Assembly: GCA_963664395.2 (NCBI GenBank)
Contig: OY761159.2
Span: 4,640,001 to 4,704,000 of the forward strand
Length of the DNA: 64,000 bases
Direction of reading: 5' to 3'
Origin: Candidatus Binatia bacterium
GTDB lineage: Bacteria; Desulfobacterota; Binatia; Bin18
The position numbers were made by a program, and so were the translations under genes. Positions 27,186 through 52,125 of the stretch are shown one piece after another; the first letter of the stretch is position 1, and every line of letters starts with the position of its first letter. A model generated the notes under the pieces. The model did no database searches, had not been told where the DNA came from, and saw only the letters and a list, made by a program, of their open reading frames with translations.

Positions 27186-28454
27186 ATGTTGTACCTATCG
27201 CATTGCTGTTCGATTTTCTTTCTGTATGCGGCCACTATCGGTATCTTCAGCGCTTGCAGCACCAGGCAAAGGGACACCCGCCTCGGCACGGAGCCCTTTC
27301 CGGTTGTAGCCCAGCCGGGCGCTCCATCTTCACCGCCGGCGCAACCGGAAATGAGCCTGACATCCGACCCGGAGGCAGAACTGGCCTGGGAATTTTTGGC
27401 GGGCGTCGATGAGACAGGCATCATCCCTCATCCTCCAGTGGCCCCGCCCGTTCAGCCTGAGCCCACCGCCTCTCAGCCGGATGAAGAACTCAATGAAGAA
27501 CTCAATGAGGAACTCAATGAGGAACTCCCCCCCCTCCTAGCGCTCGGTCCCCCTCAAGAAGAAAAAGCCTCGGGCTGGCTGGCTTGGGTGCCGGACTTGT
27601 CTCCGGACGAGTCCGGCACAAATGGAAATGCGCAGTACCGGACCGAGCAAGACCTCCTCAAGGTTGTCGCCGAGTTTCAGCGCGTGGCGGCAAAAGATAC
27701 CTACCGCTTTCCTTTACCCAAAGATGTGACCGGAGCCAATGTGCATAAGGCGACACTCACCCGCATCCATGATTATGAAACCAAACATCCGGGTGCCTAT
27801 TCCGAGATTATCGCCTTCACCCGAGGGCGGGCCTATGAAGGGCTGCACGCCTATGAACGAGCCCTGGCCGAGTACCAACGGGTAGCCCAAGGCAAAAGCC
27901 GACTCAAACACGAGGCCCGCCAAGCAGTCGAAGCGCTCACCGCCTTTCAGGCCCTCGCGCAACAGGTACCGACAGCCACAACCGTGGGTGAGTATGTTCA
28001 GGCGCTTGACGAACACGGGCAGCGCTGGAGGGGCTTAGCCCAGCAGTATCAGAACACGCCCTATAGCGCCCTGGCGCGCGAAGAAGAGGAACGTCTTGAC
28101 CAGGCGAAAATCGCCTTCTTTGCAATCAACCGCTACCGGATTGAGGATGGTAACGAGAGCGTTCTCTTGGCCTACCAACAGTTACTTGATAAACATCGGG
28201 AGAGCAAAAACCGCTATCGGTATCGGATGGAGCTAGGGGATTTCTATGTTACGCTCGCCCATGAGTATATTGCCCAGAACGATCCTGAAAGCTTACGTTT
28301 CGATTCCGACATCTTTGAAGCATTGGGACAAGCGGCGCTCCACCATTACGCGAGGGTTGCCCAAGAGGACGGCATCATGGAAAAACTTGAAGCCAAGGGC
28401 AAACTCGAAGCGCTTGAAGCCTATATGGCCAAAGTCGGACGTTTAGGACGTTAA
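27186..28454 (+). CDS. Hypothetical lipoprotein with a TPR-like helical C-terminal region
   Basis: Lipobox-like IFSAC, Pro/Glu-rich linker, then helical segments such as FTRGRAYEGLHAYERALAEYQRV. Confidence 0.65.
   Translation: MLYLSHCCSIFFLYAATIGIFSACSTRQRDTRLGTEPFPVVAQPGAPSSPPAQPEMSLTSDPEAELAWEFLAGVDETGIIPHPPVAPPVQPEPTASQPDEELNEELNEELNEELPPLLALGPPQEEKASGWLAWVPDLSPDESGTNGNAQYRTEQDLLKVVAEFQRVAAKDTYRFPLPKDVTGANVHKATLTRIHDYETKHPGAYSEIIAFTRGRAYEGLHAYERALAEYQRVAQGKSRLKHEARQAVEALTAFQALAQQVPTATTVGEYVQALDEHGQRWRGLAQQYQNTPYSALAREEEERLDQAKIAFFAINRYRIEDGNESVLLAYQQLLDKHRESKNRYRYRMELGDFYVTLAHEYIAQNDPESLRFDSDIFEALGQAALHHYARVAQEDGIMEKLEAKGKLEALEAYMAKVGRLGR
27481..27527 (+). repeat. Four copies of a 12-bp in-frame tandem repeat (EELN)
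   Basis: atgaagaactca x2, atgaggaactca, atgaggaactc. Confidence 0.9.
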
Positions 28455-28457
28455 GCC

Positions 28458-30515
28458 GTGCAGAAAGAAAACGGCATGTGGTATCGTTTCATCCCGCTGC
28501 TCCTGTGTTTCCAGCTCCTGCCTGCATCCCCACTGCACGCTCGGGATTTCGCAGATCCGCTAGCCCGGCGCGTGACTGAGTTTTTGCCGGCCTATACCCC
28601 CTTTGTGCCACCGCTGCCTCCGGAGCGATATTTTCCGGATGAGGTCGGAGAGTACGTTGCCGACGCGATTATTGATGGCTACCTCCAAGACCCGTCAGCA
28701 TTACGAGGCAGGATAGCGCAACTGGAGCGGCAGGATGCGCAACTCTCAGCGCAAGGAGATGAAGCAACCGATGTCATTCCCCTGGTGTATGCCCTGCTGT
28801 ATCGGTCAATAGAGCACAATGGGCAGGAGTATCTCCCACTTGTTGAACTGAACGCGACGCCGGATGAAATTCTCTCTCAGGCGGACCAACTCTACGCCTC
28901 GGAAAAGCGCTACCGTATGGCCCGGCTGTTCAATTGGGTACTCTCGACCTTTGACGTGGCACGGCTGTTTCTCGGCGCGCCGGCCAGTCCCAGTCCATAC
29001 GCGGCTCAAGGCGTAGTCTCTTCAGTCGGCCAACAGTCCGGGCCAAGTCCACGAGAGCGAAAGGCATTGGCCCTGTATCGTCTTTTCCTCGAACAAGCCC
29101 CGAATGATCCGCGTGTCCCGGAAGTCGAAACAAAAATGGAGGCCCTCGACACGAAACGAAAAAAGGCTGCCGTCCAGGCTGAATTGGCCCGGGCTGAGCA
29201 AGCATTCTCTGAAGAAGACTATTGGAAGGCCAATTTTTATTATCAACTCACCCTTCTTGTTGATGAAAACGCCGAGGAAGCCAAAGCCGGCATCCAACAA
29301 GTCGAAGCCCGCCTGCAACACTATGCCGCTCTCAACGCGCACGACCTACCCCAAGACCCACTGGCTGGTGTGAAACAGGCGGAGTGGGAGCACAGTAAGG
29401 AAACCTTGACCTATATGCTGCCAGGGAGCGGGTTTGTCAAAGACAATATTGTTGTGGCCGGCCTCCAGATCGGTACGGAGGGGCTTGTCGGCGCGGCCAC
29501 CTTTGGGGGGCTGACCATGATCCAGACCTTGGGGAAACTGTGGCACGTCATGACCGGACGGGCCGTCTCCCGGCAAGGGATTATTACTGAGGGCGAAAAA
29601 TACTTGCAGCAGACCCCCTCAGAGGAGCGCGCTCCGGAGATCTACCCCATCCTGGCCAAAGCCTATGCGAAGGAAGGCAAGGTTGAGAAAGCCGTTCGGT
29701 ATTATGCCTTAGCCGGCATGGAAGAAGAGATTCCCACGCTCCAGGAAAACGCGGCAGAAGCGCTGCTCGACCAAGCCAACGCAAGTACGCATCAAACGGA
29801 GAAACAAGCCTACCTGCGTCGCCTGCTGGAGAGCTATCCCAAGACTGATGCAGCAAAGAAAGCGGCTGAAGAATTTCAGAAGGGCAGGCGGCCTGAAAAC
29901 CAGGGGCTACAGCTCAGTAAGATGTTCTTGCGCGACAATCCGGACCTGTTTGGCACTCAGGGCCTTGGACTCAAAAGGGAACTGTATGATGGCAACTGGC
30001 GTAATATCGAGCTCACGGACGACGGGATCATCCTCTCCCCCCATGGCGACGTGACACTGCTGTTAGAAAGCGACGATGGTCCTCGAACCAAGGTATACAG
30101 TGTGCCAACGGCGGCGTGGCAACAGTTCTGGCGCACGTTCCGAGAAAAGGGCTATGAAGACGCTCTCTATCGCGGAGACCGAAAAATTGCCAAGCTCGTC
30201 CAGGGGGCGGAGCCAGCAGACATCAAACTCAAGAGCGAGTTTGAAAAAAATGATGAAGACGGCTGGCGCGTCCTGCCTCATCTGACCGGGAGTATGGGAG
30301 AAGGGTTTGACGTACGAGGGACTCTACCCAAAGACATCCTCGGTACCCGCCTTGCGTTTGGGAGAGACCGGCTCAGTAGCTATATTGGCATTGAAGTTCC
30401 CATGCCGCTCGTACCGGTTGATTTTCTCCTCCTCGGTCGCGACGGCCTGCCCTCGCTCTACCCACGCATTCGTCTTCCGGATCAGCATATCAAGGACGAG
30501 GAGTTGTACCGGTAG
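28458..30515 (+). CDS. Hypothetical secreted TPR-containing protein with a beta-rich C-terminus
   Basis: Signal peptide (LLLCFQLLPASPLHA); TPR-like segments (ALALYRLFLEQAPNDP, LAKAYAKEGKVEKAVRYY, RLLESYPKTDAA); starts 3 nt after the upstream gene. Confidence 0.7.
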   Translation: MQKENGMWYRFIPLLLCFQLLPASPLHARDFADPLARRVTEFLPAYTPFVPPLPPERYFPDEVGEYVADAIIDGYLQDPSALRGRIAQLERQDAQLSAQGDEATDVIPLVYALLYRSIEHNGQEYLPLVELNATPDEILSQADQLYASEKRYRMARLFNWVLSTFDVARLFLGAPASPSPYAAQGVVSSVGQQSGPSPRERKALALYRLFLEQAPNDPRVPEVETKMEALDTKRKKAAVQAELARAEQAFSEEDYWKANFYYQLTLLVDENAEEAKAGIQQVEARLQHYAALNAHDLPQDPLAGVKQAEWEHSKETLTYMLPGSGFVKDNIVVAGLQIGTEGLVGAATFGGLTMIQTLGKLWHVMTGRAVSRQGIITEGEKYLQQTPSEERAPEIYPILAKAYAKEGKVEKAVRYYALAGMEEEIPTLQENAAEALLDQANASTHQTEKQAYLRRLLESYPKTDAAKKAAEEFQKGRRPENQGLQLSKMFLRDNPDLFGTQGLGLKRELYDGNWRNIELTDDGIILSPHGDVTLLLESDDGPRTKVYSVPTAAWQQFWRTFREKGYEDALYRGDRKIAKLVQGAEPADIKLKSEFEKNDEDGWRVLPHLTGSMGEGFDVRGTLPKDILGTRLAFGRDRLSSYIGIEVPMPLVPVDFLLLGRDGLPSLYPRIRLPDQHIKDEELYR

Positions 30516-30553
30516 TGCTCAGGCGTCGAAGCATACTTCTCATTCCGATTCTC

Positions 30554-32110
30554 TTATGCATTCGCGGCGTAGAAGATAAATTCCACGTCCCCGATACGGA
30601 CGTTCATGCCATCTCTGAGAAGATTTTCGGAAACCTTTTTCCCATTAATATGGATTCCGTTTTTGCTTTGCAAATCGAGCAGCACATAGCCCTGTTTGAC
30701 TTTTTTTATTCGAGCATGTTCACGCGATATGGATGAGTGCAGAATAATTGCCTCACATTCTTCTCCACGCCCAAATGTCATCCCATCACGGGAAAACGCA
30801 ATTTCGCGGGGCACTTCTTCAAATGGACTTTGGCGAACAAGGCGGGCGTACGGAGCGGATGTCCCGGGCACGACAGCAGCTGAGCTTTGATTCATGGAAC
30901 TGGGGCCACCGGTTGCCGTCTTCAGCATACTCAGCACTTCGGCCGGAAGCTCAGGAATCTGATTGAGGCGAACACGCGCCAGTAAAATCAGTCCGCCAGC
31001 GGCTAGGAGTAGAATCACCCCATTCCACACCCCATAGACAACGACGGCTTGCGGGGTGGTTGCGCCAGGTCCTGAGCTGGTCGTAACGACTCGTGCGCCA
31101 CCAATACCACGCACCTGGTAGGAAATACGCGCCTCCCCTTCCCCGTTCGGATGCTGAATGGTAAGCGCGACCTCACGTTCTGCCCCATCCTCGACCGGGC
31201 GTGGGCTGGTATACGTCAGGAAGTATTGCGACGCGAGCGAGCGGCCGATCTCACTAATCAGCTCAGGAAATCGTTCACCCTCACTGACAATATTATAGTG
31301 TCGCCCAGCGCTCTCCTTTGCGATCATATGCAGGTCGGGAGCCATAAAGGGCGGCGGAGAGATAGCAAAGACATTCAGATTCGCCTTTTTAATCTCTGCC
31401 AATACCTCCGCGCCCGACACTTGCGTGACTTCCCGACCGTAGAGATTATTTTTTTCCGAGCCATCCCCGCGCGTATGATTCGGTGCGTCGGTAATCAGGA
31501 TGAGGACAGCCTGGGCGTCAGGCCGAAACGGAAAGCTGCAGGCCAGTAACATCGCATCGAGTGAGTTCTCCGGAATATCGCCTCCGCCTGCCGGACGCAG
31601 AGCGCCAACCCAGCTTTTGAACTCCCGGGCGCTCCGGGTAAACGCCCGCTCGTCCCGAATAACATAATCTTCAAAGGTCACTAAACCTAAACGATAATCC
31701 CGGTTGGCCTTGGACAGGCGGTCGGCAAAATCGATGGTGGCTTCTTTCATGCCGTCAATGAACGGCCCCATGCTTTCCGTTACATCGAAGACTACTACGA
31801 TATCGACAGGCCGGCCCTGCTGTTCCCCTCGGAAATCAATGATCTTGGCGTCCGTACCGTCCTCTTGCACTGTCACGTGCTCTGGCGTGAGTTGTCCGAC
31901 CGGCTGCCCACGTAAATCAGTCGCATTGAAATACAGACCAACGGCACCGCCGTTAGTAAAATTCTCCAATTGGGGATTGGTGACAGATACGACCACTGAA
32001 TCTGACGCAGAGACACTCTTCGTAAAAAACGAGAAGAAGGCCAGGCAATATATGAGCACCAGCACAGCGCTGGGATAGCTCTGCTGAGCGAGACGGTCAT
32101 CCAGTCTCAC
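30554..32110 (-). CDS. Exported vWA domain + TM helix + cytoplasmic FHA domain protein
   Basis: Probable GTG start at 32110; signal peptide, MIDAS-like DVTESM and ILITDA, TM (GVILLLAAGGLILLA), FHA (FGRGEEC..SISREHA..SKNG). Confidence 0.85.
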   Translation of the reverse strand: MRLDDRLAQQSYPSAVLVLIYCLAFFSFFTKSVSASDSVVVSVTNPQLENFTNGGAVGLYFNATDLRGQPVGQLTPEHVTVQEDGTDAKIIDFRGEQQGRPVDIVVVFDVTESMGPFIDGMKEATIDFADRLSKANRDYRLGLVTFEDYVIRDERAFTRSAREFKSWVGALRPAGGGDIPENSLDAMLLACSFPFRPDAQAVLILITDAPNHTRGDGSEKNNLYGREVTQVSGAEVLAEIKKANLNVFAISPPPFMAPDLHMIAKESAGRHYNIVSEGERFPELISEIGRSLASQYFLTYTSPRPVEDGAEREVALTIQHPNGEGEARISYQVRGIGGARVVTTSSGPGATTPQAVVVYGVWNGVILLLAAGGLILLARVRLNQIPELPAEVLSMLKTATGGPSSMNQSSAAVVPGTSAPYARLVRQSPFEEVPREIAFSRDGMTFGRGEECEAIILHSSISREHARIKKVKQGYVLLDLQSKNGIHINGKKVSENLLRDGMNVRIGDVEFIFYAANA

Positions 32111-32120
32111 GGCAATCCCC

Positions 32121-32978
32121 CTATTCCTTCCCTGCCCGCTCTCGAAAGAGGAGTAGAGTTCCACCGACTTCAATCCGATCGCCATTTTTAAGCTGGACTG
32201 ATTGGGCAATCGGGGTCCGGTTGACGCTGACCTGCCCTTCGTTTTTGGCAAGCACAAATGTATGCTTGTGTTTCTCGACCACGGCATGAAGATTGGCAAT
32301 GGAACGGTCGCCAAACAGACCGACATCGCTTTCTTCGGCTCGGCCTATTGTGGTTTTGGGCTTAGTCAGATGATATTCACGGCCTTCACGGACATTGCGG
32401 CTCTGCGAGCGAATCACCATAAACCAGCCGCGCTTAAACATCTCACTGACCAAGCCTATCCAGAGACCGATCATCGCTCCCAACAGGGCAAATGCAACCC
32501 CACGGCCGGCGGTCTGCGATAGCAGGGTGGTGACAATCTGAAAGAGCGCTCCGCCGATCGCCCCGCCGATGCATCCGCCAATCGCCCCATTGCGTAAACG
32601 GACCAGCGACTGGCCGACCCAGCCCGCTCCGAGCCCAACTGCGAGTCCAAAGAGTCCCCAGCCTATAGTGCGTCCGCCAAGACCACCAAACAGGCCAAAC
32701 ACCAGCTCTCCCATCAGAAGACCAACAGCACCACCCGCCAGACCGGCCAGCCCACCCAGCTTCACGCCTTGCCACGTCTTGTTCTTATGACCCGCACTGA
32801 GTCCTTCAATGGCACCGATGAAAGCGCCCACACAAATTCCAGTCACGGCGCCCAAGGCAATGGCCCGGAGATGGATATTTCCAACCGCGGCCAAAGGGTC
32901 AGCCGCGGCCCATCCAGCGATGCCACCCAGGAGCCCGGCCCCGCTATAGAGGACAAGTCGTTCGCGTGAAAGTTCCAT
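32121..32978 (-). CDS. Gly-rich multi-pass membrane protein with a C-terminal FHA domain
   Basis: About six Gly/Ala-rich TM segments, then TTIGRAEESDV..IANLHA..VSVN..LKNGDRIEVG; ATG 32978 with GGAG. Confidence 0.83.
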   Translation of the reverse strand: MELSRERLVLYSGAGLLGGIAGWAAADPLAAVGNIHLRAIALGAVTGICVGAFIGAIEGLSAGHKNKTWQGVKLGGLAGLAGGAVGLLMGELVFGLFGGLGGRTIGWGLFGLAVGLGAGWVGQSLVRLRNGAIGGCIGGAIGGALFQIVTTLLSQTAGRGVAFALLGAMIGLWIGLVSEMFKRGWFMVIRSQSRNVREGREYHLTKPKTTIGRAEESDVGLFGDRSIANLHAVVEKHKHTFVLAKNEGQVSVNRTPIAQSVQLKNGDRIEVGGTLLLFRERAGKE

Positions 32979-33034
32979 ACTACTCCGCTGCTCAATGCAC
33001 CACGTGTATGTACAGACAGCCGTCATGATACGGC

Positions 33035-35404
33035 CTAGAGTTGCAGTGACCAATGTCCGCTCACGCTCTCGGACGACCCGACACTATACGTTCCGCTGAG
33101 TCGGTTTTCTTCACGCCAGCCGCGGAAATGATAGTCGCGATTGCCAATCCGACTTTGAAAGTCAATGTTATTATCCTGTAGGCTTCCTTCCAGAGAGGCG
33201 GCGCCGAAACCGGTCGCGTGGATCACCAAGTTACCACGTAACACCCCGTTACTGTGCGGTTGAAAATGCACCTCAAGAGGAACCTCACGCTCAGGACCCA
33301 GCCCGAGGATGCTCCCTTGGTGCGAGTTGAGGATATGGGCCAAGTCCCGATCATCGGTTACGGTAAATTTCTCGGGCGAGAGCGGGTAGCCGTTGACATA
33401 AAAGTCAACCTTGTAATCGCCGGGGGAAAAGGCGCTCCCACTGGCATTGCCGATTCTGGCAGTAAACGTCACCTTCTCTGTTGTATCCGAGACTTCTTTT
33501 CCCTCTTCGACCGTCCCGAGAATCTGGCCGTTGGGGGCATAATAGGTTGCGGTGACCCGGTGGTAAGAAGGCAACAGGTCATGGAGCTGGTTCTGAAAAT
33601 CCGCCTCCCAGGCCACGAACCGGAGTTTGGATGCGCCAAACGAAGATGCGGATTGAGAGAGGCGGCTGCCATCTTTCGCGGTATTGAAAAAGCGGACGGA
33701 GACCAGAGAAAGCGGCTCCTTGCTCCGTTCCTGGATGAGGGCCAGCCGTTTTTCCTCTGCCGCACGCCCGGCGCGCTCTTCCTCCGGTGTCGGTCCAATG
33801 ACTGCCGGGACATCAGCCCTACCAGCTACACCACCTTCTTCAGCATCGGCCTTTGCGACCTTGACCGGATCGGCTTCAATCCGGACTGTTTGACTGGCCA
33901 GCTTGGCATCCCCGAAATAGAGCTCAAGCTGGTAATCGCCTGTGGCCCGCTCTTTGAGCCCCTCAAGCAGCGTCACGCCCCGGAGTTCAAGCTGTTCTTC
34001 TTCGGGCCGCACAAACCGGCCGGCTTCGCTTTTCCCAGCCAGCCCCCCCTCAGGATCGAAAAAGCGGCCCTCTATCCGATAGTTCCCGCCTTCGACCCCG
34101 GACAACCTATTCTTCAGCACGGCTTCCCAGGTCAGGTATTGCACCTCACCAACTGTATAGCTTGCCTTGGCTTCCGACCGTGGCGTGCCGTCGCGCGAGG
34201 TATTCACTAGGCTGAGAGAAACGAGTTCGAGCGGATCGGCCCGTAGCGTGCGCAGGCGTTTCTCCCGCTCCCACGGCAAATCCGCAACAAAAGCCCGGAA
34301 CCCTGCACGCCGGGATTCCGGCAGCCAGGTTTCGAGCTGCTGCCAGGGAATCTTTTCTCCCAACTGCGCGATCGGATTACCTTGCAGCAGTTCAGGGGAA
34401 GTCAACAGTCCATACGCTCCGCCAGTCATCAGCAGCAAAAAAACAAGGGCCGCAACCATACGCCCCCAGCGCCGTTTCTTTTGCGGCGGTGCGACGGTGA
34501 GGGGTTCCTCAACCGGCTCCGGCAAAGGCTCGAGAATCTGGGTCGCGGCTTGGGACGAGCTGGGAGATGGGGCCGCGCTCAGTCCGCGCCCATACAGAAA
34601 CATGTCCTTAAACGCTTCCGCGCTCTTTGGCCGCTCTTCCGCTTTATACGCCAGGGTCTGGTCAATGGCTTGAGCCAGGAAGGGAGACGCGTCGGGCTTC
34701 TCCGAAAGCACCGGCGGACACGAGAACGGCGGATGTTTCTCGGGGTCACGGCCGGTCAGGATATAGTGCAGGGTTGCGGCCAGGCCATAAAGATCGGACC
34801 GTTCATCAACCTGTCCCGAGTATTGCTCGGGCGGGGCAAATCCGGGCGTGCCAATCAGGGTGGCTTTGCCTTGGGGAGAGAAAATTCTGGCAATGCCAAA
34901 GTCAATCAGCGTGATGCGCCCGTCCGGCCCGAGGATCACATTGCCCGGTTTCATGTCCCGATAGATGATGGGCGGAGAAAAGCCATGCAGATACGTCAGG
35001 ACATCGCACAGTTCCCGGCCAATCTCGATGACCCGGCTCTCGGGGAGCCGACCGCCCAGTCCGGCGATTTCCTGCTCCAGATTGACCCCTTCGACAAAAT
35101 CCATCACCAAATAATGGCAATTGCCTTCACCAAAGCGGTCAAAAATGGCGGGAATGGCCGGATGGGTGAGCTGGGCCAGCGTGTCAGCCTCGCGATGAAA
35201 ATACTCGATTGCTTGGGCGCGCTCCTCGGGATTGGTGAACCGGTCAAAGATTTCTTTGATGGCGACACGCCGCTCGGCAAGACGCTGATCCTGGGCAATA
35301 TAGACGACGCCCATACCACCGCCGGCCAGAAAGCGCTCGATCTGATAGCGCCCCGCCAGGGTCGTTCCAGGTTCAAGTTGACCGCTTTCGTTCCGCGACA
35401 TCAA
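33035..35404 (-). CDS. Receptor-type (Hanks) Ser/Thr protein kinase
   Basis: GGGMGVVY, VAIK, YRDMKPGN, DFGIAR, GTPGFAPPEQ, DLYGLA; TM helix; extracytoplasmic region with two homologous beta-rich repeats. Confidence 0.93.
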   Translation of the reverse strand: MMSRNESGQLEPGTTLAGRYQIERFLAGGGMGVVYIAQDQRLAERRVAIKEIFDRFTNPEERAQAIEYFHREADTLAQLTHPAIPAIFDRFGEGNCHYLVMDFVEGVNLEQEIAGLGGRLPESRVIEIGRELCDVLTYLHGFSPPIIYRDMKPGNVILGPDGRITLIDFGIARIFSPQGKATLIGTPGFAPPEQYSGQVDERSDLYGLAATLHYILTGRDPEKHPPFSCPPVLSEKPDASPFLAQAIDQTLAYKAEERPKSAEAFKDMFLYGRGLSAAPSPSSSQAATQILEPLPEPVEEPLTVAPPQKKRRWGRMVAALVFLLLMTGGAYGLLTSPELLQGNPIAQLGEKIPWQQLETWLPESRRAGFRAFVADLPWEREKRLRTLRADPLELVSLSLVNTSRDGTPRSEAKASYTVGEVQYLTWEAVLKNRLSGVEGGNYRIEGRFFDPEGGLAGKSEAGRFVRPEEEQLELRGVTLLEGLKERATGDYQLELYFGDAKLASQTVRIEADPVKVAKADAEEGGVAGRADVPAVIGPTPEEERAGRAAEEKRLALIQERSKEPLSLVSVRFFNTAKDGSRLSQSASSFGASKLRFVAWEADFQNQLHDLLPSYHRVTATYYAPNGQILGTVEEGKEVSDTTEKVTFTARIGNASGSAFSPGDYKVDFYVNGYPLSPEKFTVTDDRDLAHILNSHQGSILGLGPEREVPLEVHFQPHSNGVLRGNLVIHATGFGAASLEGSLQDNNIDFQSRIGNRDYHFRGWREENRLSGTYSVGSSESVSGHWSLQL

Positions 35405-35415
35405 CTAGCGCCTCA

Positions 35416-37161
35416 CTACTCGTGAAAGACAACGATCACTGAGGTATTATCGCTGCCGCCACCCGTATTTGCCGCAACGGTCAACTCCAAGGCCGCCTCG
35501 GACGGAGTACGGTGGCGACTCAAGATATCAGCAATCGCCGGATCAAGGACATGGCTGGTCAACCCATCGCTGCACAGGAGGAGTCGGACCCCTCGCTTGA
35601 GTGGCCGCGAGAGCGTATCAACCACAACATTTTCCTTGCTCCCCAAAGACCGAATCAGGACGTTACGGTGCTCGTGGGTCAACGCCTCTTCTTCCGTCAA
35701 TTGGCCGATCTCGACCAGACGGGCGACCAAGGAATGATCGTGCGAGAGCTGCCGCAGTTCCCCATTTTCCAGCAGGTAGACCCGGCTGTCCCCGACCCAC
35801 GCCACCGTCAGTTGTCCGGCCCGGACCAGCGCAGCAACAATCGTTGCTCCCAGGCCGGCAGATTCTGGATGATCTTTCCCGTATTGGACAATTTTTGTAT
35901 TGGCCGCCTCGACCGACTCACGTAAATGGGTCTCCCAGGCTGCCGCATCAAATCCCTCAACCCCCTTTTGCTGTCCAGTGGAGGCCCCCTCTCTCCTCAG
36001 CCCTCTCCCGCCAGAGGGGAGGGAAACGGTGGCTTCTTCAACATGCTGGGCCACAGTCCGAATGGCAATCTGGCTGGCGACCTCACCGGCTTCGGCTCCG
36101 CCCATACCGTCTGAAACGATATAGAGTCCATTAAAATCATCGCCCTCTATGCTGCCTTGACCCACCTCTTTGACAAGAACGGCATCTTCATTATGGTCGC
36201 GTACCTGTCCGACATCGGTCCGCCAGGCCGAGCGAATATGCACCGACTGACTCAGAGCGAGCAAGTCTTGTTTCAGGGCTGGCAGGTTCGGATAGCGCTC
36301 CCCGACCTCAAAGGCTAACGCTCTTCTTAAAACGCGCTCAAAATCGGGCGTCAGGACCTTCTCAGGATAGAATACTGGTGGCTCAGGCTGAACCGCCCAG
36401 CCTTCAATGGGTAAACGGCGCCCCACGAGAACGGCATACAGGCATGCGCCCAGAGCAAACACATCAGCAGCTTCGTGTAACACTTGGGACTTATATGCCT
36501 CAGGCGCAGCATACCCATCCGTCAAAAAGGGACTCTCCTCAAGCGCGTCTTTCAGGCGTATGGCGTCAAAGTGGGTGAGGTGCAGACGGCCGGTCTTGTC
36601 GAGTATGATATTTTCCGGAGAAAGTTCAACACACAAGAACCCATGCCGGTGCAAAGCACTCACGGCCTGGCACAGCTGCACGCCCCAGCCGGACGCCTCC
36701 CGCTCCGACGTCCGGCCCATGCGGCTACTCAGAGGGATACCGGACTGAGTCGGCGTAATGAGGTAGACCCGGCCATCACGTTCCAGACTTTCCTGCGGGA
36801 GGATGAGAGCCGGGTGGTGAATCGCGGCAAGCTGCTCGGATAGCTCAAACGCACCACCCGCGTCGGTCTGGTCACTTAATCGTTCAGCTATAAGATAGGT
36901 CTGTCCGGCGTCAGTCTGACGAACCGCCTGGTAGCGATTTTCCTGTCCGGTCGAGAGGATGGATGTGAGGCGATAGGTATCAGCGAGGATTGTGCCTGGC
37001 GTCAGTGGTTCAAAGAGGGAGACCGAAACGCCCCCTTCTTCAAGCGATACGCCACAGGCAGTACAAAAAATTTCTCCAAGCACATTGGCTTGTCCGCACT
37101 CAGCACAAACAAGGCTCTCCTCAATGTCTATAGGCTCGGTCATCAGAGGCGCAGAACCCAT
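35416..37161 (-). CDS. Zn-ribbon + degenerate kinase-like domain + PP2C (Stp1-type) phosphatase
   Basis: CAECG..FCTACG; kinase fold with HRD replaced by CVE and DFG by HFD; PP2C motifs RDHNED, SDGMGG, VGDSRVY, LCSDGL, GGSDN. Confidence 0.9.
   Translation of the reverse strand: MGSAPLMTEPIDIEESLVCAECGQANVLGEIFCTACGVSLEEGGVSVSLFEPLTPGTILADTYRLTSILSTGQENRYQAVRQTDAGQTYLIAERLSDQTDAGGAFELSEQLAAIHHPALILPQESLERDGRVYLITPTQSGIPLSSRMGRTSEREASGWGVQLCQAVSALHRHGFLCVELSPENIILDKTGRLHLTHFDAIRLKDALEESPFLTDGYAAPEAYKSQVLHEAADVFALGACLYAVLVGRRLPIEGWAVQPEPPVFYPEKVLTPDFERVLRRALAFEVGERYPNLPALKQDLLALSQSVHIRSAWRTDVGQVRDHNEDAVLVKEVGQGSIEGDDFNGLYIVSDGMGGAEAGEVASQIAIRTVAQHVEEATVSLPSGGRGLRREGASTGQQKGVEGFDAAAWETHLRESVEAANTKIVQYGKDHPESAGLGATIVAALVRAGQLTVAWVGDSRVYLLENGELRQLSHDHSLVARLVEIGQLTEEEALTHEHRNVLIRSLGSKENVVVDTLSRPLKRGVRLLLCSDGLTSHVLDPAIADILSRHRTPSEAALELTVAANTGGGSDNTSVIVVFHE
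35985..36023. repeat. REP-like palindromic element inserted in frame in the PP2C domain
   Basis: CCCCCTCTCTCCTCAGCCCTCTCCCGCCAGAGGGGAGGG resembles the widespread CCCTCTCCC..GGGAGAGGG repeat; reads SLPSGGRGLRREG in the protein. Confidence 0.55.
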
Positions 37162-37220
37162 GCATCACCAGTCCAGTCAATTCCAGCAGTTTAGGCAGTT
37201 CCAGAACGGCCAGCGCAGCC

Positions 37221-37886
37221 TCATGGCACGCGCGAGACCTTGAAAAAGGTTTTGCCGACGATGATCTCATCCCCGTCTTTGAGGGTAGCCGGTGAGCCTG
37301 GCTCAAGACGTTGGCCCCTGTTGACAAACGTCCCGTTCAGGCTCCCAATATCCTCAATCGTCAACTCATCGCCGAATTTTATCAGCGCGTGTTTTCGGGA
37401 GATACGCGCTTCCGCATCATCATTTTCCATATCAACTTCAGGGAAAGAACCGGAATCCGGGTCCCACCGACCAACCAGATTATCTCCTGCTTGGAGCTCA
37501 AAAACCTTACCCACCGTTCCGCCACGGGTGATGGTGAGAGAAGCGCTCCCGGCTGCACCTTCTGTTCCTTCTGTTCCTTCTGAGCCTGGACCCTCGCTTG
37601 GTGCGACGTCTCCGGGTGCTTCTTCAGGGGCCGGTGTAGGAATATCTCCAACCGCCTCAGCCGCAGGTTCTTCTGCAACGGCCTCCGGACTTGTCTCACT
37701 TGCCCCACTTGCCGCACTTGCTGCACTTGCCTCAACTCCGGCAGGAGCTTCCTCCACGGCTTCGCTGTCAGGTGCGGCGGGGGCTTCGGCACTCTCCGTC
37801 GCTATGACTTCAAGTTTCGCTCCGCAGCTATCACAGTACTCCAGACCATCCATGTTTTCTTCATTACATTCCGCACAGCGAATCAT
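37221..37886 (-). CDS. Zn-ribbon + acidic linker + FHA domain protein
   Basis: CAECN..YCDSCG; FHA VGRWD..ISRKHA..DIGSLNGTFVN..LKDGDEIIVG. Confidence 0.9.
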   Translation of the reverse strand: MIRCAECNEENMDGLEYCDSCGAKLEVIATESAEAPAAPDSEAVEEAPAGVEASAASAASGASETSPEAVAEEPAAEAVGDIPTPAPEEAPGDVAPSEGPGSEGTEGTEGAAGSASLTITRGGTVGKVFELQAGDNLVGRWDPDSGSFPEVDMENDDAEARISRKHALIKFGDELTIEDIGSLNGTFVNRGQRLEPGSPATLKDGDEIIVGKTFFKVSRVP

Positions 37887-37941
37887 GCTCGTATCTCCTT
37901 CATTGACCTCATTGCTGAACCGTTACCCTTCACGGGCGAGC

Positions 37942-39252
37942 TTAGTCTTGCAGGGCATCTTTGACGCTCTCGGGATCAAGAAGTTGCGTTTTTCGTAAGG
38001 TTGCCTGAGCGTTGAGCAACTGGGTTTTGGCCGCCCCGGTCGCGAGACTCTGTGTTTTCTTCAATTCACTCTGGAGCCCTTCGAGCGCTTGGGTTGCCTT
38101 CGTGTTCCCAAGTCGTTGGGTTCCGGCTATGGCATTGCCCAACAATCGCGTGGCTTTGTCGGTATTGCCGGCAGCCATAGCAGCCTCAGCCTGCATTTGG
38201 ATCTTGGCGACGCTGACTTGATCAACGAGATTCATCACATAGCCGTTCGCCTTGCCAATGGAAGCTCGCTCAAGCGTATAGTTCACCACAACGTCCACGT
38301 TTTCGTGTTGGTTCTTGGCCTCAGGCGTATCGTAATGCAGCCCGGCCTGAGCGAGCCGGACCCGACCGGGGCGGCGGGGCGGTAAGACTAACACTGCCAA
38401 TGCCGAACTTGGCGTACCCGCTTCAATATCTCCCAACGGGAGAGAAATAATCCGATTGGCATCGGGCGTAATATCTTTAATCGGGTAAATCTGAGGACTG
38501 GCGCGAAAGGCTTCTTTCACCTGCACCCCAGCGCTCAGTTGCACCTCAATACGCGCATTGGTCAGTGCGACATTCCGAAGTCCCTGGAGTTCGCTGGAAA
38601 AAATATCCGGAATTGAGGCCGGGGTATCAATAAAGTGATAATTGGACCCGCTCGCCTCCGCCATTTCCATCAGCAGTTTTTCATTAAACTCGCCGCCCAC
38701 GCCGAGTGTGCTACACGAAATACGGTCACGATGCTGACGGGCGAGATCGAGACATTTGCGCTCCTCATACGTCTGACCATCGGTCAGGAGCAACAGCCGG
38801 TTCAGGCGGTTGGGCGAATAATACTTCTCGACCTCGGCAAGCGCCGCTTCCATCCCCAGCGCCATTTGTGTTCCGCCCCCGATCTCCAACAGATCCAGAT
38901 CGTCAATGGCTCGTTTCACACCGGATGCATCCGCAGCCACCCGGTCTGCCGTTGCCGCAACGTCTGCCTTGTCTGCAAACGCGACCACCGCCGCCTTGTC
39001 ATCCGGACCAAGATTATCAATCAGATATTTGACGGCATCAATGACATAATCAAGCCGCTGTTCATCATACATGGAACCGCTCCGGTCAAGCACAATGCCG
39101 AGATTGAGAGGCAGGCGCACGCCCCCGCCTTGCGGCTTTGTCTCCATGAGCAGGTACAGGATAAAATTTTCTGCGCTGCTCAGCACGGCATTACGGCTTG
39201 TCAACGCTTGGAAACCAACAGCAGCAGACACGAGAGGCTCCTTTTTTGCCAA
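37942..39252 (-). CDS. Cytoplasmic vWA domain protein
   Basis: LDRSGSM MIDAS, GGT, LLLTDGQ; beta domain followed by a helical C-terminus. Confidence 0.9.
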   Translation of the reverse strand: MAKKEPLVSAAVGFQALTSRNAVLSSAENFILYLLMETKPQGGGVRLPLNLGIVLDRSGSMYDEQRLDYVIDAVKYLIDNLGPDDKAAVVAFADKADVAATADRVAADASGVKRAIDDLDLLEIGGGTQMALGMEAALAEVEKYYSPNRLNRLLLLTDGQTYEERKCLDLARQHRDRISCSTLGVGGEFNEKLLMEMAEASGSNYHFIDTPASIPDIFSSELQGLRNVALTNARIEVQLSAGVQVKEAFRASPQIYPIKDITPDANRIISLPLGDIEAGTPSSALAVLVLPPRRPGRVRLAQAGLHYDTPEAKNQHENVDVVVNYTLERASIGKANGYVMNLVDQVSVAKIQMQAEAAMAAGNTDKATRLLGNAIAGTQRLGNTKATQALEGLQSELKKTQSLATGAAKTQLLNAQATLRKTQLLDPESVKDALQD

Positions 39253-39339
39253 GAGAATTGTTCAGAAGAATTGTTGAATTTTTATCTCACGTTTTTTCCC
39301 CAGGAGCAATATAACTACCCGCGAATTCTTGCGGCCTTA

Positions 39340-39828
39340 TTACTCCGGCTTCCGAAACTGGTCGTGACAGCCCTTACACGTTCCGAACATCTTTTGCATA
39401 TGTTCCTTGACTGCAGCGGCATTGTTTTCTCCTGCGGCCACGGCAAGCGCGTCAGCTTCTGTACTCAGTTCTGTGGCTGAGGCGAGAAAAGCGTCCCAGT
39501 TCTGCCAAATTTCTTCTTTCGCCCGAGAGGAGTCTGACGTGCTGCCCTCCGGAAAGAGCCCTGCGATCCGGGTGGAATGAAGGGCTATGGCGGCGGCATT
39601 CATTTTTGCCTCTTTGAGTGTACCGGCATCGATCTTGCCTTTCATCTCCTTGGCATTGGCCCCAATATTCTCCATCAGATACTCGCGAAACGGCACCGCC
39701 TGCTGAGGGTCCGGCATATGGGTGGGATGATTTTCATGCCCAAAACTCGACCCACTATGCAGACAACTTGCCACCACAACTGCGCTGACCAAAGCCATAC
39801 GGACCACACGTTTGACCCGACCTTTCAT
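39340..39828 (-). CDS. Cytochrome c' / c556 (class II four-helix cytochrome c)
   Basis: Signal peptide, LFPEGS, A..EIW.NWD.F, C-terminal CKGCH. Confidence 0.9.
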   Translation of the reverse strand: MKGRVKRVVRMALVSAVVVASCLHSGSSFGHENHPTHMPDPQQAVPFREYLMENIGANAKEMKGKIDAGTLKEAKMNAAAIALHSTRIAGLFPEGSTSDSSRAKEEIWQNWDAFLASATELSTEADALAVAAGENNAAAVKEHMQKMFGTCKGCHDQFRKPE

Positions 39829-39886
39829 TGCAGCACCTCCTTACTTACGAAAAACACGCCCGCCCGCGTTGCGTCTCAGGGCTCCG

Positions 39887-40834
39887 TTACTGTTCTGACT
39901 CCCAGGTAGAAAATTTGGGAGCAACCGATTTGAGATATTGGGCAACCGCCTGCGCATCTTCATCTGTCATGTCTTTGTACCCGCCTCCGGGTACCCCATC
40001 AATCACCAAGGCCATCAGCCCTTGGACGTTATCAAAATTCGGGAGAAAACCGGTGCGCAGCAGCGAGACGATTTCCCCTTCGCTCCACTGCCCGATACCC
40101 GTTTCGTCATCAGGGGTAATATTGGGAGCGACCTCGCCGTCAATACCCGCCGGATTGCCAGCTAAATTTTGCGCACGGTCGAGGGTGCCAAACACCGTGC
40201 GCGGCGTATGGCACTCCTGGCAATGGGCGAGATGTTCACTGATGTAGCGACCTCGGGCAACCGGGTCTGCCCTTGCAAGCACGCGGGTTTCGGCTGGTTC
40301 AAAAAACAGCCAGCGCCAGACGCGCATGGCAAGCCCGGAAAACGGAACGGTGATAGCGTGGGAGAGGTTTTTTTGCGCAATCGGCTCAAGGCTGCGCAGG
40401 AAAGCGACCAGAGCAGTCACATCTTCATCCGTCATTCCGCTCAAGGCCGGATACGGCATGACTGGACTCATGACCGTGCCATCAGGTTTCACCCCCCGCC
40501 GGATCGCGTCGATGATTTCCCGGTCCGTCCAGTTGCCGATACCGTGGACCGGGTCGGGTGTGATATTGGTCCCGTAAAACCTCCCGTACGGAGTCTCAAG
40601 CGGTCGTCCACCCGCATTGACCGGCCCATTATCGGCCGTATGGCAGCCACATCCGCCGGCCAAGGAAAATATATACCGCCCGTGGGCGACGAGGTCCGAG
40701 GTATCAGCCCAGACGTTCTGGAGGCGACCGAATGAAAAGGTAAAAAGAAGGCACAGGCAAAGAAGCGGTCTTTGTCTATGCCGCTTTCTTGCAGCAGGCA
40801 GTGACGACTCGGCTGGAGTCAATTGATCTGCCAT
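39887..40834 (-). CDS. Di-haem cytochrome c (dehydrogenase cytochrome subunit-like)
   Basis: G.Y...GGCGCHT, NITPDP.HGIG.W, PVMPY, RG.Y...HCQECHTPR, APNITPD.ETGIG.WS. Confidence 0.88.
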   Translation of the reverse strand: MADQLTPAESSLPAARKRHRQRPLLCLCLLFTFSFGRLQNVWADTSDLVAHGRYIFSLAGGCGCHTADNGPVNAGGRPLETPYGRFYGTNITPDPVHGIGNWTDREIIDAIRRGVKPDGTVMSPVMPYPALSGMTDEDVTALVAFLRSLEPIAQKNLSHAITVPFSGLAMRVWRWLFFEPAETRVLARADPVARGRYISEHLAHCQECHTPRTVFGTLDRAQNLAGNPAGIDGEVAPNITPDDETGIGQWSEGEIVSLLRTGFLPNFDNVQGLMALVIDGVPGGGYKDMTDEDAQAVAQYLKSVAPKFSTWESEQ

Positions 40835-42981: not shown

Positions 42982-43007
42982 CCGAGACTCACTCAGGAGG
43001 GGTAACC

Positions 43008-45577: not shown

Positions 45578-46210
45578 CTACCAACTCCTTACCTCACGAG
45601 CCAGGGCACCGAATCCGGTAGGAAAGCATTGTTCGAGAAGCTGTAAATCCTGAGTGAGTCTTTGCGCTTCTTTGGTTGCGCGACGGGTCTCCAATTCCAG
45701 CGAAGGACGTGATGTTTCGTAAACATCTTCTTTCAGGCTCCTCGTGGTATAGGGGAAAGGACCCGACGGCAGACTTGCTATCCAAGCAGCCTCAGTGACG
45801 TGTGGGTCGAGACCACATCGATACCATGCCTCTATTGCTGGAACGGCTATACCGACTGCAATCTTAATCTGAGGGCGTCCCTGAACAGGTCGAAGTTGGT
45901 CAAGAACAGGATCAATAGTCTGGCGCATTTTGCAAAGCCGGCATCTCTCATCCGCGCCGCCCGCTTGCTCATGCTCTGGCCCGTGCAGCGGTGTCCGGTC
46001 AGAATCCACCACAATGACGAGAGCATCTGCGTCCGTTCGGTAGTGTAAGTGCTTGAGTACAGTCGGAAGAATTGTGAAGACACCGGAGACGCCGCGTGTT
46101 CCGATTGGAGGCATATCAACTGCTTGAGTTTGCCTACCAACAATGCCTTCAATGAGAATACGAATCGCCGCCTCATCTGCCGGCGATTCGCTGAGGACCG
46201 CTACCTTCAT
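45578..46210 (-). CDS. TOPRIM-like (DUF4276/DUF4435-like) protein coupled to the upstream ATPase
   Basis: VAVLSESPAD, VIVVDSD, AIEAW; ATGA overlap with the ATPase stop. Confidence 0.65.
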   Translation of the reverse strand: MKVAVLSESPADEAAIRILIEGIVGRQTQAVDMPPIGTRGVSGVFTILPTVLKHLHYRTDADALVIVVDSDRTPLHGPEHEQAGGADERCRLCKMRQTIDPVLDQLRPVQGRPQIKIAVGIAVPAIEAWYRCGLDPHVTEAAWIASLPSGPFPYTTRSLKEDVYETSRPSLELETRRATKEAQRLTQDLQLLEQCFPTGFGALAREVRSW

Positions 46211-47177: not shown

Positions 47178-47500
47178 ACGAACCGCCTTCGGGCTCTTGT
47201 GGTCAGTACAGCTATCGCTATTCAGACCGTAGTATGGACTGAGATGAAGAAGAAGAGCAATAGGGAATGAGGCGGAGTGATTGCCATTGACTAGCCTTTG
47301 TGCGAGAGCGCGGCTTCGATTTATTCGGGCGTCTCCTCCGTGTAGGAGAAGGGATGAACGCCTGCCCCGCGATCCGTAAGGCTCTCCTCTGTTCCGTAGG
47401 CCCCGGCCTCGCCTCTGCTTCTTTTCGGTACACGCCCGGAGTGTTGTGTCCTGCGTTCCGTGTGATATCCGCTACAGGCCGCTAAGGGATAAGCAGAAAG

Positions 47501-50929: not shown

Positions 50930-50977
50930 ACGATTTTGAAGATTGACCGTAGCCGGTAAGGGTGCTGTGTTATCAAT

Positions 50978-52120: not shown

Positions 52121-52125
52121 CCGTA

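Follow-up and report, generated by a model that had tools for sequence, protein, structure and literature searches.

Six clustered genes of Candidatus Binatia as a probable Hanks-type phospho-signaling module with an ArnA/ArnB-like pair and a Gly-rich membrane FHA protein

Introduction

What kind of system is encoded by six closely packed genes for a receptor kinase, a protein phosphatase and several vWA and FHA proteins in the chromosome of a Candidatus Binatia bacterium? The genes are found in a stretch of 64,000 nucleotides from contig OY761159.2 of assembly GCA_963664395.2 (positions 4,640,001 to 4,704,000 of the forward strand), which is called the window below. All six open reading frames (ORFs) are on the minus strand, and together they occupy positions 30554-39252 of the window. 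They are referred to here as g1 to g6, following the direction of transcription. An initial annotation, made from the sequence of the window, had read the cluster as an undescribed surveillance switch, in which an external cue would trigger the phosphorylation-dependent assembly of membrane FHA proteins. With a little more confidence than doubt, we favor the view that the cluster is a chromosomal, vertically inherited Hanks-type Ser/Thr phospho-signaling module of Binatia, a class of the candidate phylum Binatota, and that it has two coupled parts. The first part (g1-g4) would correspond in bacteria to the ArnA/ArnB switch known from archaea and would bring its own kinase and phosphatase, and the second part (g5 and g6) would be a membrane complex.

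Results

Domain composition and layout of the cluster

The first gene, g1 (37942-39252, minus strand, as are all six), encodes a cytoplasmic vWA protein of 436 amino acids (aa; Pfam VWA, E = 8.3e-17). The product of g2 (37221-37886, 221 aa) consists of a Zn-ribbon, a linker of acidic residues, Pro and Ala, and a canonical FHA domain (FHA, 7.5e-14; DZR, 6e-04), and that of g3 (35416-37161, 581 aa) of a Zn-ribbon, a pseudokinase and a PP2C domain (Pkinase, 1.7e-16, partial; PP2C_2, 1.3e-13). The fourth gene, g4 (33035-35401, 788 aa), encodes a PknB-type Hanks receptor kinase with a transmembrane (TM) segment and an ectodomain (Pkinase, 3.1e-29). The last two genes encode membrane proteins with FHA domains: g5 (32121-32978, 285 aa) combines a six-helix Gly-rich membrane domain with an FHA domain (FHA, 1.4e-08), and g6 (30554-32110, 518 aa) has a signal or anchor segment, an exported vWA domain, a TM segment and an FHA domain (VWA, 4.7e-10; Integrin_beta, 8.7e-09; FHA, 8.5e-15). 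The domain anatomy given in the initial annotation is therefore correct for all six genes, each named domain being found by Pfam (E 1e-08 to 3e-29). No nuclease, DNA-binding or other enzymatic output domain was found in the Pfam scan of the six proteins.

The longest ORFs at three of the genes (33035-35404, 789 aa; 32121-33053, 310 aa; 30554-32326, 590 aa) overlap the preceding gene, so inner starts were chosen for them, namely ATG at 35401 for g4, ATG at 32978 for g5 and GTG at 32110 for g6. With these starts the gaps from g1 to g6 are 55, 59, 14, 56 and 10 bp, and the earlier description of six tightly spaced minus-strand genes separated by 10-59 bp is borne out by the ORF list. The start of g1 is a TTG at 39252; its Binataceae orthologues begin near residue 8 of the window protein, and the true start may be located a few codons further in. 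A scan of 30000-40000 for promoters and terminators gave no minus-strand site within any intergenic gap, and the operon structure is therefore argued from spacing and synteny alone.

Conservation and inheritance of the gene order

In a scan of one genome per species, 182 stretches were found to encode a relative of g5; of these, the best 80 were analyzed together with 10 kb on each side. Genes at these loci were stop-to-stop ORFs compared with the window proteins by BLASTP (E<=1e-5, coverage >=0.3, same strand). All 80 loci are records of metagenome-assembled genomes (MAGs), mostly titled Binatia, Binataceae, Binatus or "delta proteobacterium", and a few have broader or odd labels; named g5 relatives are mostly Candidatus Binatia or Binataceae. 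We distinguish close relatives, whose g5 is at least 70% identical to that of the window (19 loci), from the Binataceae type, whose g5 is about 50% identical (61 loci). Upstream genes were counted where a flank of 8.5 kb was present (16 close and 47 Binataceae loci), and downstream genes where a flank of 2 kb was present (18 close and 57 Binataceae loci).

It is evident that g1-g4 accompany g5 in most of these genomes. All four genes are upstream of g5 in 16/16 close relatives and in 39 of the 47 Binataceae loci, and g3 and g4 are both present in 16/16 and 41/47, respectively. Five Binataceae loci (L031, L034, L047, L057 and L064) have none of g1-g4 within the 8.5 kb and three (L023, L028 and L066) have a partial or fragmented set; no close relative (0/16) is of either kind. 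The sixth gene is next to g5 in all 18 close relatives and in none of the 57 Binataceae loci, and a second kinase-type ORF is found in 42 of the 47 Binataceae loci and in none of the 16 close relatives. The flanking genes of the close relatives are identical in kind to those of the window. Since order and orientation recur in related genomes (16/16 close relatives, and 39/47 Binataceae loci for g1-g4), the arrangement is not due to chance. These results show that the conserved core is g1-g5. The six-gene form is specific to the lineage of the window, where that description stands; it does not extend to the Binataceae, which lack g6 beside g5 and have an extra kinase-type gene. They also show vertical descent in fixed chromosomal contexts within Binatia.

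The Binataceae loci have some features of their own. The extra kinase-type ORF is present in L020, L036, L044 and 39 further loci; in L036, which was scanned, it lies between g2 and g3 and encodes a kinase-FHA fusion of ~590 aa (Pkinase, 1e-39; FHA, 2e-13). In L066 (5973-9948), g3 and g4 are broken into several short ORFs, either as a decaying copy or through assembly errors. A conserved gene for a lipoprotein of ~255 aa, without family match, follows g5 in L027, L031, L034, L047 and others, and is followed in turn by the genes for glucose-6-phosphate dehydrogenase (G6PD) and glucokinase. It is present even at loci without g1-g4. This lipoprotein was considered as a seventh component and dropped, as it has no relative in the window and G6PD and glucokinase come next.

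Likeness of g1 and g2 to ArnB and ArnA

The MIDAS motif of g1 (for metal ion-dependent adhesion site), DxSxS...T...D, is invariant in 55/55 orthologues, and no TM segment is predicted in the protein. As a single sequence, g1 matches the PDB entries 4fx5_A (2.5e-08), ArnE 5a8j (2e-06) and ArnB 8s05_A (2.4e-06). A profile of 11 orthologues matches 4fx5_A with E=4.8e-11 (profile 56-389) and ArnB 8s05_A with E=1e-08, in the latter case with profile positions 58-402 aligned to chain positions 43-376. The alignment with ArnB extends from the vWA domain into the Thr-rich C-terminal helices, and g1 appears from this likeness to have the three-part build of ArnB, with vWA domain, beta-sandwich and C-terminal helical bundle. 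We take 4fx5_A to be the Catenulispora vWA structure that has been likened to ArnB. According to PMC12852372, which cites the Catenulispora structure without a PDB code, that structure shares the architecture of ArnB. ArnB is described there as a vWA domain, a split beta-sandwich and a C-terminal helical bundle, phosphorylated at multiple Thr by the kinase ArnC, and ArnA as a Zn-finger, a linker and an FHA domain that binds the multi-phosphorylated C-terminal helices of ArnB (PMC12852372). The same source describes two states of the Sulfolobus pair, a loose one through the Zn-finger when ArnB is unphosphorylated and a tight one through the FHA domain when it is phosphorylated (PMC12852372).

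The second gene encodes the same architecture as ArnA, in the order Zn-ribbon, linker and FHA domain, and it adjoins g1 in 16/16 close relatives and in at least 39 of the 47 Binataceae loci. Its four Cys are kept in 39/41 orthologues, and the GR, SRxH and NG motifs of the FHA domain in 41/41. The PDB matches of g2 are GarA/OdhI at ~1e-10 to 1e-11 and ArnA (5a8i, 8s05_C) at ~1e-06.

The C-terminal tail of g1 (residues 365-425, 37978-38160, minus strand) was found in the orthologue alignment to have six Thr-x-x-Leu sites, five of which are of the form TQxL. Five of the six positions (T368, T387, T400, T410 and T422) are Thr in 55/55 orthologues and T378 is Thr in 53/55; the residue at +3 is Leu in g1 of the window and hydrophobic at all six sites in 55/55 orthologues. 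Five TQ.L motifs did not occur in any of 20000 shuffles of g1 (0/20000). The pattern TQx[LIVM] is absent from g2, g3, g5 and g6, and among the neighbors it was found once, in an unrelated flank protein. The profile alignment places the tail against the Thr-rich C-terminal helices of ArnB. A similar site is found in the kinase itself, where the juxtamembrane T287 (TQIL), with its hydrophobic residue at +3, is invariant in 66/66 orthologues of g4. Many bacterial FHA domains prefer phosphothreonine (pThr) in the context pT-x-x-(I/L/V), and PknB-type kinases favor Gln after Thr. The Thr array of g1 together with T287 of the kinase is a candidate phospho-site code.

Receptor kinase and pseudokinase-PP2C fusion

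The protein encoded by g4 has a kinase domain (residues 1-270), a disordered juxtamembrane stretch (residues 277-312, 34466-34573, minus strand) that contains T287, a TM segment (residues 311-334, predicted segment 315-333) and an ectodomain of ~450 aa with beta-sandwich fold (residues 340-788, 33038-34384, minus strand). The catalytic motifs (Gly-rich loop, beta3 Lys, catalytic-loop Asp/Lys/Asn, DFG and APE) are kept in 62-66/66 orthologues, and T181 and T185 of the activation loop in 65/66. The best fold matches are PknB, Stk1 and PknA (E ~1e-15). Judged by these motifs and matches, g4 is an active, PknB-like Hanks kinase.

In the AlphaFold2 (AF2) model of g4 (mean pLDDT 78.8), the ectodomain comprises a stalk of helices, a pair of similar beta-sandwiches and one further beta domain. 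Its relatives, 140 proteins at E<=0.001, are either fused to kinases or kinase-less fragments, and the few named ones come from Binatia-type MAGs. In 15 proteins compared with Pfam, weak likeness to PapC_N (15/15) and DUF6941 (14/15) was found, which for the window protein is below the cut-offs. The fold search with the whole protein was dominated by kinases and gave nothing informative on the ectodomain, and the ectodomain profile matched WD40 and designed-repeat entries alone among PDB sequences, with no accepted stretch. As these searches were uninformative, no ligand can be proposed for g4.

The kinase-like domain of g3 (residues 53-301, 36259-37005, minus strand; partial Pkinase match) shares 27% identity with the kinase domain of g4 over 273 aa. 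In the alignment of the two, the Gly-rich loop is gone in g3, and the beta3 Lys, the catalytic Asp and the DFG Asp are replaced by Ala92, Glu179 and His197, respectively. These four replaced motifs confirm, at the level of the alignment, that this domain is a pseudokinase, as the initial annotation had called it. The Zn-ribbon that precedes it has a weak Pfam match. The PP2C domain (residues 315-578, 35428-36219, minus strand; PP2C_2 match) keeps its metal-binding motifs in 60-63/63 orthologues and scores 224.1 bits against the NCBIfam model for the Stp1/IreP phosphatases (NF033484), whose cut-off is 230. The domain is thus active-looking in its sequence and falls just below the equivalog cut-off for Stp1/IreP.

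Gly-rich membrane FHA protein and its predicted partner

The membrane domain of g5 (residues 1-182, 32433-32978, minus strand) is followed by an atypical, cytoplasmic FHA domain (residues 184-280, 32139-32429, minus strand). The AF2 model, made with 40 diverse sequences, has a mean pLDDT of 92.3 and a pTM of 0.86. It shows six Gly-rich helices of 23-33 residues (2-31, 35-62, 65-97, 99-121, 125-152 and 155-180) joined by loops of 1-3 residues, which look like three Gly-zipper hairpins. Basic residues are located at the start of helices 1, 3 and 5, and both ends of the membrane domain as well as the FHA domain were placed in the cytoplasm on this ground. The protein is 24% Gly. Among 40 diverse members of the family, 32 positions are at least 80% conserved, and 24 of them are Gly; the remaining positions are W23, L87, E91, R103, W107, S124, L166 and L176. 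Gly-Arg, His and Asn of the FHA domain are invariant in 81/81 sequences.

We found no known structure or family for the membrane part. In a Foldseek search of the PDB, the matches of g5 are limited to the FHA part, and matches to EmbR at a root mean square deviation (rmsd) of ~17 A were discounted; an Atlas search with residues 1-182 gave no usable match. No Pfam model covers the membrane part, and NCBIfam gives a sub-threshold match to the YiaD glycine-zipper family. Our literature searches, whose coverage leaves out most subscription journals, yielded no publication on a membrane protein of the Gly-zipper FHA type, nor any function or structure for the family. A survey of bacterial FHA clusters was reportedly made by Pallen in 2002.

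The g5 family is large, with 1838 representative clusters at E<=0.001, of which 65 are at E<=1e-30. Look-alike clusters are labeled Planctomycetota, Spirochaetota, Cyanobacteriota and Bacteroidota, which are Atlas labels to be read as leads only; 4 of 10 clusters of g5 relatives have any member name, and one is labeled as a Deinococcus sp. MAG. We counted the architectures among the 150 best of the 1838 representative clusters, with a Pfam check on 20. The commonest are TM-FHA (76/150) and TM-FHA-FHA (53/150), and 10/150 are fragments. Eight of the 150 are TM-FHA-vWA-FHA, with or without further FHA domains, and are complete fusions of g5 and g6; one is a truncated fusion and two have the vWA domain in another position. 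The g5 module is thus joined to a vWA domain in one polypeptide in 11 of the 150 clusters. The nearest relative of g5 of the window, P0121, is itself a g5+g6 fusion, in which the FHA domain leads directly into a TM helix and then an exported vWA domain. On a FastTree phylogeny of 136 rows, the fused state requires 9 changes as drawn, and the well-supported branches taken by themselves require at least 2.

As a separate gene, g6 encodes a protein with two hydrophobic segments, a signal-like one at residues 15-33 and a TM segment at 360-378. Its DxTxS motif is kept in 20/20 orthologues and the GR/SRxH/NG motifs of its FHA domain in 19-20/20. With g1 in the cytoplasm and the vWA domain of g6 exported, MIDAS-type vWA domains are placed on both sides of the membrane, as had been claimed. 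In models of the complex between g5 and g6, the TM region of g6 (residues 356-386, 30953-31045, minus strand) is predicted to pack against helices 1 and 2 of g5, with residues 366-377 of g6 and residues 13-24 and 53 of g5 in the interface. The ipSAE score is 0.61, the median of three runs (0.69, 0.56 and 0.61), and the best of 3 controls reached 0.00. This mark was reached by 116/157 solved complexes and 2/215 mismatched pairs, a calibration that is only rough, since our own alignments were used. The runs share at least 57% of their contacts, and the partner pLDDT is at least 80. As the sequence and fold searches gave no solved structure that resembles the membrane domain of g5, the complex score is unlikely to reflect a memorized structure. 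The models support the binding of g5 and g6 to each other. Together with the fusion of g5 and g6 in other lineages, this predicted binding agrees with the assembly of membrane FHA proteins put forward in the initial annotation.

Discussion

A model of two coupled parts

From the domain anatomy, the intact or degenerate catalytic residues, the conserved Thr sites, the synteny, the fusions and the sequence likeness to ArnB, we infer the pairing of the kinase with its substrates and that between the FHA domains and their sites, as well as the nature of the cue and of the output. The lineage-specific beta-sandwich ectodomain of g4 would sense an extracytoplasmic cue, and g4 would become active by phosphorylating T181 and T185 in its own activation loop. 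Its next targets would be T287 in its own juxtamembrane stretch and the tail of g1 with its six Thr-x-x-Leu sites. Binding of these pThr sites by the FHA domain of g2 would tighten the loose pair of g1 and g2, in the way described for ArnAB. The PP2C domain of g3 would remove the marks, and its pseudokinase probably docks on the kinase domain of g4. In the second part, the TM helix of g6 would pack on helices 1 and 2 of the Gly-zipper bundle of g5, and in the resulting complex a MIDAS-type vWA domain would face outward, with a pair of FHA domains on the cytoplasmic side. The same pThr sites, on g4 or on g1, could serve these FHA domains for docking; kinase activity would then recruit or rearrange the g5-g6 complex, and ligand binding by the outer vWA domain could feed back. 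Since the six genes provide no output in the form of an enzyme, a nuclease or a DNA-binding protein, the output would be a regulated protein assembly at the membrane that acts on a target encoded elsewhere.

Several observations weigh against this model. The likeness of g1 to ArnB is weak (1e-08 with the profile, 2.4e-06 with the single sequence), the FHA domain of g2 is nearer to GarA/OdhI than to ArnA, and the family ArnB_C (IPR040929) is not among the Pfam matches of 11 g1 orthologues at E<=1, in a Pfam copy whose inclusion of that model is unconfirmed. The Cys of the g3 Zn-ribbon are confined to the lineage of the window (17-18/63 orthologues). The catalytic-loop position of g3 is Asp in the Binataceae (45/63), where it is the loss of the other motifs that justifies the term pseudokinase. 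The ectodomain of g4 matches no recognizable ligand-binding family in the Pfam and PDB profile searches. The FHA domain of g5 is without the canonical Ser at -3 from His, which is replaced by Ala, Leu or Gln in the 81 sequences and is missing throughout the wider family, and it may not read a standard pThr peptide. The score of the g5-g6 complex is a model confidence. The five of 47 Binataceae loci that have g5 and none of g1-g4 within 8.5 kb, and the 57 Binataceae loci without g6 next to g5, show that the two parts can be separated. The statement that a writer, an eraser and three readers sit in one operon is likewise to be trimmed: an active kinase, an active-looking PP2C and FHA proteins are indeed present, but with the atypical FHA domain of g5 the canonical readers are two.

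Other explanations

The cluster might be a Thr-phosphorylation switch for an envelope machine encoded elsewhere, such as one for secretion, pilus formation, gliding or adhesion, in the manner of PpkA/PppA/Fha1 or ArnAB. A kinase, a PP2C, an FHA protein and a periplasmic vWA domain make up the component set of the type VI pathway, in which PpkA combines a kinase with a vWA domain (PMC1262709). The FHA domains of the cluster match a model of the YscD cytoplasmic domain, and TagH- and GltG-type models match below their cut-offs. It is also in line with this explanation that ArnAB controls a motility organelle from a distant locus and that the cluster encodes no output domain. The score against the TagH model TIGR03354 is 25-32 bits, however, far from the cut-off of 120.25, and the vWA domain is carried by the FHA protein rather than by the kinase. 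Among the ORFs of at least 150 aa scanned in the 64-kb window, none was recognized as a gene for secretion, pilus formation or motility, which agrees with the earlier remark that no secretion genes are adjacent. The few ORFs scanned beside a Binataceae cluster encode G6PD, glucokinase and aldolase, and no envelope-machine gene is among them. Moreover, this explanation concerns the downstream target and does not amount to a different mechanism, and no target is identified in these data. We consider it unlikely, though worth keeping in mind.

It could also be argued that two independent modules happen to be neighbors, a kinase circuit of g1-g4 and a membrane protein, g5 with or without g6, that is served by other kinases. 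The five Binataceae loci with g5 and without g1-g4 and the absence of g6 beside g5 at 57 loci fit such an explanation, and so does the distribution of the g5 family, which is much wider than that of the g4 ectodomain or of the g3 fusion. The position of g5 speaks for coupling instead: it follows g4 directly and on the same strand in 16/16 close relatives and in 41/47 Binataceae loci, across g5 lineages that are ~50% identical, and in the window the gap between g4 and g5 is 56 bp. FHA domains depend on a Thr kinase, the closest of which is g4. Independence of the two parts is therefore decidedly unlikely in our judgment.

A more far-reaching proposal is that g5 and g6 represent an unstudied, integrin-like class of membrane receptors, in which the Gly-zipper bundle would connect the exported vWA domain with the two cytoplasmic FHA domains; ligand binding by the vWA domain and Thr phosphorylation would control each other, in outside-in and inside-out signaling, with g1 as a multi-site scaffold for receptor clustering. 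It draws on the match of the g6 vWA domain to the integrin-beta VWA model (8.7e-09). In a still bolder variant, the six-helix bundle of g5 would open as a phosphorylation-gated conduit. The initial annotation had suggested g5 as a possible channel; the complex model instead has the TM helix of g6 packed on helices 1 and 2 of g5. Behind both ideas is the nature of the g5 family, which is large, without solved or named relative, and recurrent as a single fused polypeptide. The integrin-like proposal is a long shot at present.

The last explanation develops the surveillance reading of the initial annotation into an anti-phage or stress system of the TerY-P kind, in which infection or damage to the envelope would activate the kinase, with g5 as a pore-forming effector of abortive infection. 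Triads of vWA, PP2C and kinase (TerY-P) are linked to defense in PMC11090510. In the PADLOC search, the kinase domains of g4 and g3 match kinase models (PD-T4-6 at 1.3e-55, mad6 and MkoA) and the PP2C domain of g3 matches PDC-M21C at 8e-10; the vWA domain of g1 has weak vWA-TerF-like matches in 11/11 orthologues (E<=1, best 2.2e-07), and a type I restriction island is located ~6 kb away. Some pore-forming peptides are very Gly-rich, as g5 is. The PADLOC matches, though, are to generic catalytic domains. PADLOC, which presumably includes TerY-P models, gave no match at E<=0.01 for g1, g2, g5 and g6 and none at E<=1 for 11 orthologues of g1, and g1 of the window scores 18.7 bits against vWA-TerF-like (PF10138), whose cut-off is 29.4. 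The kinase g4 has a TM segment and an ectodomain, not the C-terminal Zn-ribbon or OB fold of TerY-P kinases. In its model, g5 is a tightly packed bundle that would bind the TM helix of g6, with few conserved polar residues (E91, R103 and S124) and no obvious pore. A plasmid search gave no match for g5, and the same housekeeping context in 16/16 close relatives, kept across lineages of ~50% identity, is the opposite of the patchy distribution of island-borne defense genes. The surveillance reading is accordingly very improbable, and for the discovery of defense systems the result is negative, the cluster not being a good candidate.

Chromosomal surroundings

The remainder of the window encodes housekeeping functions. 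On one side are genes for heme synthesis, topoisomerase, a DEAD helicase, NadA, MutL, MutS, acyl-CoA dehydrogenase and EF-G, and on the other side of the cluster are those for cytochrome c', cytochrome c, MlaD and two CoA-transferases. The immediate flanks (cytochromes c, MlaD, CoA-transferases, a luciferase-like oxidoreductase and EF-G) are the same in 16/16 close relatives.

Two cytochrome genes, for cytochrome c' (39340-39828) and cytochrome c (39887-40834), are located on the minus strand upstream of g1, with gaps of 58 and 87 bp, and no minus-strand terminator-like site was found between them and g1. They are kept there in close relatives and not in the Binataceae, and might be co-transcribed with the cluster. 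Downstream, two convergent genes at 27186-30515 (plus strand) encode proteins of 422 and 685 aa without family match, save a weak YbgF/TPR-like stretch in the larger one. Each protein has an export signal, one of them a lipobox-like FSAC and the other a signal peptide, and the genes adjoin the cluster in the lineage of the window only, as g6 does. They could be an extracytoplasmic link, or nothing.

The type I restriction-modification island spans 45578-55705, with HsdM at 47501-49486 and HsdR at 52700-55705; it also has, between these two, genes for an M78 (IrrE-like) peptidase and a DUF4411 protein (50978-52647) and two short ORFs with AAA_21 fragments (45578-46719). Just past it are a tmRNA gene (58380-58734) and smpB, a common insertion point of islands. 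Two adjacent paralogues of family III CoA-transferases, 413 aa each, are encoded at 41740-44249 (plus strand) and show sub-threshold likeness to succinyl-CoA:mesaconate and formyl-CoA transferases. A tRNA-Gly reported by ARAGORN at 6299-6371 (minus strand) within the gene of topoisomerase subunit A was not confirmed by Rfam and is probably false.

Comparison with known systems

The nearest counterpart of the first part of our two-part model is the ArnA/ArnB pair of Sulfolobus acidocaldarius, with its kinases ArnC and ArnD and the phosphatase PP2A. Both systems have a MIDAS vWA protein with multiple Thr in C-terminal helices and an adjacent gene for a Zn-finger-linker-FHA protein, and they would share the same logic, in which a Hanks kinase adds the phosphates and a Ser/Thr phosphatase takes them off again. 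Unlike ArnA/ArnB, the cluster is bacterial, includes the genes for its kinase and its phosphatase, which is PP2C and not PP2A, and has a membrane receptor as the kinase. It also differs in the regular Thr-x-x-Leu repeat, in the two added membrane FHA proteins and in having no archaellum to regulate.

A bacterial operon of similar content is DRA0331-DRA0334 of Deinococcus radiodurans, which is described as encoding a vWA protein, a TM Ser/Thr kinase, a stand-alone FHA protein (a FraH orthologue) and a PP2C; the FHA protein enhances phosphorylation by the kinase and the PP2C reverses it (10.64898/2026.01.23.701218). By architecture and description, which is how the two were compared, the same four components are found in our cluster, including a PP2C domain placed after a non-catalytic docking domain. 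The gene order is different, and the partner of the PP2C domain is described as KI-FHA, where g3 has a pseudokinase. According to the same source, the kinase of Deinococcus ends in three TM helices and is without a large ectodomain, and no gene of the g5 or g6 type is mentioned in the description of the operon.

In TerY-P systems, a vWA protein, a PP2C and a kinase are encoded together, and a phosphorylation switch with a MIDAS domain at its center has been proposed for them (PMC11090510). The TerY-P kinase has a C-terminal Zn-ribbon or OB fold in that description (PMC11090510), whereas g4 has a TM segment and an ectodomain in its place. In further contrast to TerY-P, the PP2C domain of g3 is fused to a pseudokinase, there are three FHA proteins, and neither defense nor tellurite genes are attached to the cluster.

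The type VI pathway (PpkA, PppA and Fha1) shares with the cluster a Hanks kinase in the membrane, a phosphatase of the PP2C type, an FHA protein as reader and a vWA domain in the periplasm. It differs in that the vWA domain of the cluster is on the FHA protein, no type VI genes were found among the scanned ORFs of the window, and the TagH score is far below the cut-off. Compared with the mycobacterial PknB/PstP/FhaA-FhaB (FipA) system, the fold of g4 is nearest to PknB, PknA and Stk1, FHA readers are present, one of them membrane-anchored, and the NCBIfam FhaB/FipA models match the FHA domains of the cluster below their cut-offs. The conserved juxtamembrane Thr of g4 could be a docking site, which would be a further likeness to PknB/PstP/FhaA-FhaB. 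Unlike the PknB/PstP system, the cluster has no PASTA domains and no rodA/pbpA neighbors, and its vWA proteins and its six-helix FHA protein are without mycobacterial counterpart.

It follows from these comparisons that the claim of an undescribed system goes too far. The pair of g1 and g2 matches the studied ArnB and ArnA, a vWA-kinase-FHA-PP2C operon has been studied in Deinococcus, and the four-gene core is a variant of ArnAB, of the DRA0331-DRA0334 operon and of TerY-P-like triads. The chief new detail is the membrane module of g5 and g6, beside the fusion of a pseudokinase with PP2C and the regular array of Thr-x-x-Leu sites. The cluster therefore links three lines that have been studied separately, the ArnA/ArnB switch, the bacterial vWA-kinase-PP2C triads and the membrane FHA proteins. 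The putative Thr code, in which the vWA protein has six sites and the kinase a single one, makes the pairing of readers with sites testable with peptides, and the second part of the cluster points to a large uncharacterized family of six-helix Gly-rich FHA membrane proteins, some of them fused to an exported vWA domain. If the ArnAB-like pair is a general switch of bacteria and archaea, it would be an ancient phospho-signaling unit common to both domains.

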